Of a stretch of 43,630 bases of DNA, positions 28,108-28,155 are shown in pieces. A program made the position numbers and the translations under genes. Numbering within the stretch: the stretch's first letter is position 1; each line of letters opens with the position of its first letter. The notes beneath the pieces were generated by a model. It was not told the origin of the DNA. It ran no database searches and was given only the letters and a program-made list of their open reading frames with translations. The DNA comes from an uncultured Acidimicrobiaceae bacterium (lineage in GTDB: Bacteria; Actinomycetota; Acidimicrobiia; Spongiisociales; UBA5794): positions 1-43,630 of the forward strand of contig CAZCBO010000002.1 of assembly GCA_964496825.1 (NCBI GenBank), written 5' to 3'.

Positions 28108-28155
28108 GTTCTTGCGTAACGTGGGCCCGTATACGGGCCCACGTTACGCAAGAAC
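28108..28155. repeat. Palindromic repeat family, copy 2 (perfect 48-bp palindrome)
   Basis: GTTCTTGCGTAACGTGGGCCCGTA|TACGGGCCCACGTTACGCAAGAAC, with the two halves exact reverse complements. It sits 2 nt from the TGA of the HAD gene (28103-28105) and 2 nt from the TAA of the MFS gene (28158-28160). Confidence 0.95.

Follow-up and report, generated by a model that had tools for sequence, protein, structure and literature searches.

Three palindromes at gene ends

We analyzed a 43,630-nt stretch of DNA from an uncultured Acidimicrobiaceae bacterium (GenBank assembly GCA_964496825.1, contig CAZCBO010000002.1, positions 1 to 43,630; hereafter the window), itself an entire contig, which contains three copies of a palindromic element lying within a few nucleotides of the ends of genes. 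Copy A (28108..28155, arms 28109-28118 and 28145-28154, centre GTATAC) occupies the convergent junction between a gene for a HAD-family hydrolase (27218..28105, + strand), whose TGA ends at 28105, and a gene for an MFS transporter (28158..29513, - strand), whose TAA lies at 28158-28160, so that 2 nt are left on either side. The coordinates agree with a preliminary description of this DNA, which had placed copy A 2 nt from both stop codons. Copy B (16440..16487) is located 3 nt from the stop codon of a gene for a 701-aa H+/Na+-translocating pyrophosphatase (H+-PPase; 16491..18596, - strand) and 3 nt from the ATG of a two-domain histidine phosphatase gene (His_Phos; 15222..16436, - strand). Copy C (41929..41974) lies 2 nt from the stop codon of an AhpC/TSA-type redoxin gene (41977..42558, - strand), and its arm and the ATG of a DUF2277 gene (41703..41921, - strand), whose Pfam profile starts at residue 1, are 7 nt apart. 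Copies B and C therefore each occupy an entire co-directional junction, adjoining both the upstream stop codon and the downstream ATG (16436 and 41921, respectively). The preliminary description had rightly put these two copies 2-3 nt from a stop codon but missed the start codons 3 nt and 7 nt away.

Copy A, GTTCTTGCGTAACGTGGGCCCGTATACGGGCCCACGTTACGCAAGAAC, is identical to its own reverse complement over all 48 bp, as previously described, and the additional pair C28107/G28156 extends the palindrome to 50 bp (28107-28156). Copy C is a perfect palindrome of 46 bp. Copy B has identical outer arms and an imperfect inner stem with a 2x2 or 3x3 internal loop (inner arms GCCAGGGCCCATA and, in complement reading, GCCTCAGCCCGTA). 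The three copies had also been said to share one core, but that of copy B is GCCCATATACGGGC, one base off GCCCGTATACGGGC. The pattern TTCTTGCGTA-N20-30-TACGCAAGAA matches the window at exactly three places (16441-16486, 28109-28154 and 41929-41974), each with N26, and has no match in 100 shuffles. The arm 10-mer has no lone occurrence in the window, where it is always paired, and a covariance model built from the wider family described below returns the three known copies as its only window matches.

Folded as RNA hairpins, copy A reaches -48 kcal/mol, copy B -35 to -37 kcal/mol and copy C -45 to -53 kcal/mol (z-scores relative to shuffled sequences, -6 to -10), and the corresponding DNA hairpins are likewise stable. 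No U-tract or T-run follows any of the three window copies on either strand and a terminator scan at copy A gave no prediction. Of the two parts of a canonical intrinsic terminator, a GC-rich hairpin and a U-rich tract, only the hairpin is present, in line with the preliminary description. Rfam yielded no match in the whole window at the gathering threshold and only generic microRNA-hairpin noise around copy A at an E-value threshold. In the full-text literature, neither arm 10-mer occurs in any relevant paper, and nothing was found on Acidimicrobiia repeats or on REP/RAYT in Actinobacteria. The palindrome family thus appears to be undescribed, as had been supposed, although the kind of element is already known.

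A conserved stem base with genome-specific interiors

A one-genome-per-species scan for the exact arms identified them in at least 115 stretches (loci L001-L115) of at least 46 assemblies, so that the pattern search proposed in the preliminary description yields many further copies, conserved in relatives. Among the matches listed, 39 of 46 assemblies are labelled Acidimicrobiia, Acidimicrobiaceae, Acidimicrobiales or Actinomycetota, 3 are unlabelled and 4 carry other labels. Typical copies are found on contigs of metagenome-assembled genomes (MAGs) labelled Caldilineaceae (L005), Kiloniellales (L033, L053, L089), Nostoc (L073) and Deltaproteobacteria (L077). The 'Kiloniellales' bin, at least, has 3 element contigs whose inner stems are like those of Acidimicrobiia, which points to mis-binning rather than horizontal spread. 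Viral contigs scanned for the arms gave 1 match only, and a metagenome search with an inner core of the window type gave 1 copy, which is unrelated. The 43.6-kb window has 3 copies, and 7-9 copies were counted among the sampled blocks of single MAGs.

From the window and the stretches listed we collected 124 exact-arm copies, with total lengths of 46 nt (n = 40), 47 nt (n = 30), 48 nt (n = 43), 49 nt (n = 6), 50 nt (n = 4) and 42 nt (n = 1). The basal stem of 10-13 bp is invariant and consists of (Y-C-R)TTCTTGCGTA paired with TACGCAAGAA(Y-G-R). It runs 2-3 nt past the 10-mer as CCG/CGG, CCA/TGG, TCA/TGA or CTG/CAG, and these flanking pairs covary. The upper stem comprises 8-12 bp with a sequence typical of each genome, and the element centre is 64% AT against a background of 37%. 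Pairing holds in 87% of cells compared with 35-41% with slid partners, and 390 cells are changed on both sides compared with 160 in shuffles. The weakest pairing is found just inside the arms, where about one third of copies have an internal loop, and 82% of arms have a purine at position 11. When the loci were searched with a relaxed pattern and with the model, just 8-9 copies were added, all degenerate, and 3 of these show a compensatory arm change (T9G with A to C), TTCTTGCGGA with TCCGCAAGAA. Mismatches counted in the sense orientation comprise 20 G:U and 18 A:C, and since G:U is not in excess, there is no sign of selection on one RNA strand. A DNA uptake sequence, which would be a single over-represented 10-mer, was rejected because the arm 10-mer never occurs alone or unpaired. 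A palindrome longer than the one defined here was likewise rejected, since beyond 3 nt the complementarity of the two flanks hardly exceeds that of shuffled pairs. In the flanks of the 124 copies, the next 10 nt or so outward from either arm are purine-rich and often GGAGG-like, even where no gene follows; such a flank is found at 43% of stop and 47% of start sides, compared with 6-11% for its reverse complement.

In the loci, 47 of 141 convergent junctions contain the element, compared with 40 of 444 co-directional and 9 of 130 divergent ones (chi-square p = 8e-14). At convergent junctions both stop codons are usually no more than 30 nt away (32/48). At co-directional junctions the upstream stop lies a median of 8 nt away and the downstream start 52 nt; 39 copies are closer to the stop and 6 to the start (p = 5e-7). 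Random scatter inside coding sequences, which the preliminary description held would argue against a role near stop codons, is not observed. The arm contains TAA or TAG in one frame and copies therefore sometimes replace the last codons of a gene. Twenty-one genes, including purB, glgA and a DUF559 gene, terminate within the arm as N-TT CTT GCG TA(A/G), that is V/I/L-L-A-stop (L009, L017, L020, L024, L036, L040, L043, L047, L059, L061, L072, L075, L079, L082, L087, L088, L089, L095 and L111), and insertion has rewritten these C-termini with a hydrophobic -LA tail. Real divergent junctions with no more than 10 nt on either side are found in L071 and L054, and the geometry there implies that the element is not an obligatory terminator.

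The neighbours of the element are functionally unrelated (H+-PPase, HAD, MFS, AhpC, purB, glgA, hutU, ybaK), and genes enclosed between two copies are ybaK-like genes, a gene for a pyridoxal phosphate enzyme and similar housekeeping genes. The exception encodes a protein of 313-316 aa with AbiEi_4 and DUF559/REase_MTES_1575 domains and lies between two near-identical copies downstream of purB in L059 (3796-4737, - strand) and L088 (6262-7212, - strand). In L064 the 3' end of purB has one copy and the AbiEi_4/DUF559 gene is absent; the sole other homologue, in L022, is away from any element. Insertion of this gene into or next to a copy may have duplicated the copy; alternatively, the gene may be tied to the biology of the element.

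Some copies lie close to start codons. In 43 of 417 genes in the loci a TANNNT motif has its last base at -7 relative to the start codon, compared with about 3 at other offsets, and four called window genes show it (starts 954 (+), 3260 (+), 30655 (-) and 251 (-)). Based on this peak, leaderless transcripts seem common in these Acidimicrobiia, including the window genome. Wherever a start codon lies exactly 7 nt from an arm (6 of 6), the base next to that arm is T, which places AAGAAT at -12 to -7, where leaderless genes in these genomes have their -10 box. Copy C with DUF2277 is one of the six, its minus strand reading AAGAAT (arm and flanking T), then GGGGGC, then ATG. A flanking T is present on 21 of 81 start sides compared with 16 of 152 stop sides. 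Judged by geometry, T-flanked copies (perhaps copy C among them) may provide or maintain a promoter element in the form of a -10-like box, and the element may also carry such a box at the tight divergent junctions of L071 and L054.

Evidence for copying, gain and loss

Copies of one genome have similar inner stems, and those of different genomes do not. In one MAG (accession prefix CAZONX) an asymmetric interior, ACTATG-GGAAGC-loop-GCTTCC-ACTATC, occurs at 6 unlinked sites in both orientations, and a second MAG (isolate MAG111) contains recurring hybrids of two half-types. At one orthologous site in two species the same asymmetric interior is flipped (L048:7895-7940 and L100:333-378); recombination between the inverted arms would flip the element centre in this way. 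At the orthologous site upstream of hutU in three species (L038, L099, L017), flanks and arms are kept while the inner stems are entirely different, a swap that goes beyond point mutation and therefore indicates replacement or conversion from other copies. L013 (1691-1802) has a second, tandem copy where the syntenic L015 has one. Further tandem pairs are found at L002:5078-5193, L056:303-418, L105:5757-5872 and L084:6406-6521; the spacers, including that of L013, are of similar size (24-28 nt) without mutual sequence similarity, and the arrangement recalls the clustered REPs in BIMEs. Shared asymmetric variants and tandem duplicates in these sequences point to copying, not to independent evolution. 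The preliminary description had argued from three copies that the shared arms reflect common descent or a shared recognition sequence rather than independently evolved terminators, an argument strengthened by their presence at the at least 115 places reported above.

No sequence in the protein collection is more than 89% identical to the window H+-PPase. Six relatives were picked by way of this protein (89, 88, 85, 82, 79 and 76% identity) regardless of the element. All six retain the local gene order, and neither the element nor a comparable palindrome was found in their 131 kb. In the relative at 89% (L117) the site of copy B reads TGA-AACGGTCGTC-ATG, with 10 nt between the codons, compared with TGA-GCG-[48 bp]-GAG-ATG in the window, and the start of the histidine phosphatase, MTRRITLIRH, is kept. 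The site of copy A in L117 reads TGA-CGACTGT-CTA, with 7 nt between the MFS and HAD stop codons, compared with TAA-GC-[48 bp]-GG-TCA in the window. As the relatives are empty, parsimony indicates that copies A and B were gained in the window lineage.

The hutH-hutU junction was considered as another empty site and rejected because the comparison is not clean, the relatives holding an extra gene there. In the window the hut genes lie on the minus strand (33210-37814), with hutH at 36144-37814 and hutI at 33210-34439, and the start of hutU overlaps the stop of hutH near 36144-36150. In L038, L099, L017 and L096 an extra gene of 280-340 aa without a Pfam match is located between hutH and hutU. 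In three of these four it is followed by an element copy, 7 nt before the hutU start.

Candidate explanations and related elements

We consider it fairly probable that the element represents a REP-like, self-propagating family of palindromic repeats restricted to Acidimicrobiia. Existing copies would be duplicated by a transposition-like or recombination-dependent process, with the constant basal stem as the recognition determinant for a putative trans-acting enzyme, and in these compact genomes copies would persist where they are least harmful, right after stop codons and above all between convergent genes. The element would be transcribed within a 3' end or operon junction and would fold as a 22-25-bp hairpin (-35 to -53 kcal/mol) that has no U-tract. 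The expected effect of such a hairpin is to stop 3' exonucleases or to act on RNA polymerase as a pause site or roadblock, and not that of a classical intrinsic terminator. At same-strand junctions such as those of copies B and C, the stem would leave stop and start codons a few nucleotides apart, and since the hairpin keeps them close, coupling could survive insertion. Termination-reinitiation coupling is likely at copy B because no -10-like box is present there and the empty-site relative L117 also has no Shine-Dalgarno sequence.

Palindromic repeats located at gene ends have been studied extensively in proteobacteria, and in Actinomycetota TRIT is, to our knowledge, the only described case. 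Like the REP (repetitive extragenic palindrome) and REPIN sequences known from Proteobacteria and some other phyla, the element is a short, hairpin-forming, multi-copy repeat with genome-specific sequence families. It shares with REPs the use of convergent and co-directional junctions no more than 20 nt from 3' ends, ends that may supply stop codons, the occurrence of singletons as well as pairs or clusters, and gain and loss between relatives (PMC3733652). In contrast to REPs of 20-40 nt, however, it measures 46-52 nt and is palindromic throughout. REPs carry an unpaired GTAG/CGTC end tag, whereas the GTA(A/G) of the element lies within the stem of both arms, and the basal stem is constant across the whole class instead of species-specific. 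A survey reported no REP-type families in Actinobacteria (PMC3733652). We do not file the element as a strict member of the REP/RAYT group because the unpaired GTAG tag is absent and any link to RAYT is putative.

Of the combined REP/MITE-like role put forward in the preliminary description, the REP-like half fits best; the 3'-end hairpin role that it also listed may apply as well. MITEs were rejected, the element being palindromic throughout with no target-site duplication seen and no parent insertion sequence in the window or loci, where no insertion sequence with these ends was observed. Neisseria Correia elements are bounded by terminal inverted repeats, have an interior that is not palindromic and show target-site duplications; a likeness to them may lie in the -10-like hexamer possibly donated to an adjacent gene. 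Integron attC sites were rejected for want of a GTTRRRY core and cassette arrays, and both these and telomere-resolvase sites were dropped as the copies are dispersed among chromosomal housekeeping genes. Canonical intrinsic terminators resemble the element in being stable GC-rich hairpins straight after stop codons, symmetric between convergent genes, but they have a U- or A-tract and stems usually far shorter than 22-25 bp, and the sequence of the element is common to unrelated genes and to different species.

Among actinobacterial elements, TRIT of Mycobacterium (Gardner et al., 2011) comes closest. Both are palindromic elements of Actinomycetota that are conserved in sequence and structure, mostly bidirectional and without a U-tract; both hold a narrow position relative to stop codons, often reaching into coding sequence, both are confined to a single lineage, and the function of both is unproven. 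They differ in sequence and host lineage: TRIT has been reported within Mycobacterium only, where its role as a terminator is doubtful. A primer set for the 3' flank of Mycobacterium tuberculosis sahH gives the TRIT arm as CGCGAGCAGACGCAAAATCGCCCA and ...GACGCAAAATCG... (PMC3719076). The element arm TACGCAAGAACG (window 28142-28156) matches this arm, known from the primers only, at 9 of 12 positions (ACGCAAGAACG compared with ACGCAAAATCG), with the loop on the opposite side. Judged post hoc, such a likeness between the two sequences has about a 1% chance of arising by accident and may serve as a lead, not as a test.

Several observations weigh against a self-propagating family. No mobilizing enzyme came to light: a tblastn search with IS200 TnpA and E. 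coli RAYT (TnpA-REP, which mobilizes REPs) as queries, covering loci and window together (925 kb), gave no true match where about 1 at best was expected, a search of little power, and Pfam analysis of 34 window open reading frames gave no transposase or other dedicated enzyme. A weak tblastn match beside the element in L061 proved spurious, lying in the wrong frame inside glgA. No target-site duplication is visible between the filled sites of the window and the empty sites of L117, and precise loss in the relatives may, as a formal alternative, replace gain. The loci were gathered by an exact-arm search, so arm conservation looks inflated, and gene contexts come from our own simple codon-model gene caller and are approximate. 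Copies are moreover kept at orthologous sites across species whose flanking genes are just 70-80% identical (upstream of hutU in L038, L099 and L017; two sites in L045 and L084; the 3' end of purB in L059, L088 and L064). The arms, invariant over dozens of species, are far more conserved than their surroundings and decayed copies are few, a pattern that resembles purifying selection on a host function and not pure selfishness. Other relatives have unrelated hairpins at the H+-PPase 3' junction that copy B occupies in the window, which suggests that a hairpin is of use there.

The same conservation and the same H+-PPase hairpins would fit a host-encoded, factor-dependent 3'-end signal resembling TRIT, in which a protein binds the base of the RNA hairpin and terminates, processes or stabilizes the transcript, as would the tight association with stop codons, including a fixed register inside coding sequence like that of TRIT at about -8 (PMC3152330). 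We nevertheless regard this as unlikely. A pure signal has no need of genome-specific inner stems or multiplied asymmetric variants, the closest relatives manage with element-free junctions of 7-10 nt, G:U is not in excess over A:C, and a terminator at the tight divergent junctions of L071 and L054 would block both genes. In addition, mycobacterial RNA polymerase fails to terminate without a U-tract and TRIT predictions scarcely overlap mapped 3' ends. Very unlikely in our view is a structural site at the DNA level, a cruciform or single-stranded hairpin bound by gyrase, a nucleoid protein or a recombinase, as proposed for REP/BIME. Relief of supercoiling would be a plausible role between convergent genes, whose junctions are enriched, and the many perfect palindromes, the lack of strand asymmetry and the AT-rich centre, which favours extrusion, are consistent with it; however, the internal mismatches of about one third of copies disfavour a cruciform, and presence and absence among close relatives would be left unexplained. 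An operator through which a dimeric transcription factor governs a regulon is close to refuted. Two highly conserved inverted arms of 10-13 bp, some of them adjoining start codons, would suit an operator, but arm spacing runs from 26 to 30 bp with no phase preference, copies lie mostly at 3' ends with just 9 of 96 in divergent junctions, the neighbouring genes are functionally unrelated and lone arms never occur. The free variation in arm-to-arm distance likewise disfavours the binding site for a dimeric protein on duplex DNA that the preliminary description had listed among candidate roles.

A REP-like family remains our preferred explanation. More speculatively, and we hold this to be quite unlikely, the constant 13-bp stem base could be the recognition site of a conserved, Acidimicrobiia-wide protein, either a domesticated nuclease or transposase that goes on copying the hairpins or a factor that binds double-stranded RNA and sets mRNA 3' ends without U-tracts; the likeness to the TRIT arm would then reflect an ancient, actinobacterium-wide protein-hairpin system, and the element would also be a donor of -10 boxes for leaderless genes. 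Because the arms are constant despite turnover of the inner stem, and because the element is present in some close relatives and absent from others, phylogenetic profiling could find a partner protein. Such a protein, if it exists, would bear on the old question of how high-GC actinobacteria set transcript ends without U-tract terminators, and a conserved partner or an established link to TRIT would make the element more interesting. The family is sharply defined and easily searched over dozens of uncultured Acidimicrobiia species and offers a marker for gene ends and for mis-binned contigs. It also affects gene calling in these MAGs by adding V/I/L-L-A tails, filling operon junctions and possibly supplying promoter elements.

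Other structures are found at the H+-PPase/histidine phosphatase junction. L119 and L121 have yet other hairpins there, and L118 (12107-12243) and L122 (10600-10687) contain inverted heptamer arrays, GTCATCA... facing ...CTGAAGA CTGAAGA, that put TGA in all three frames.

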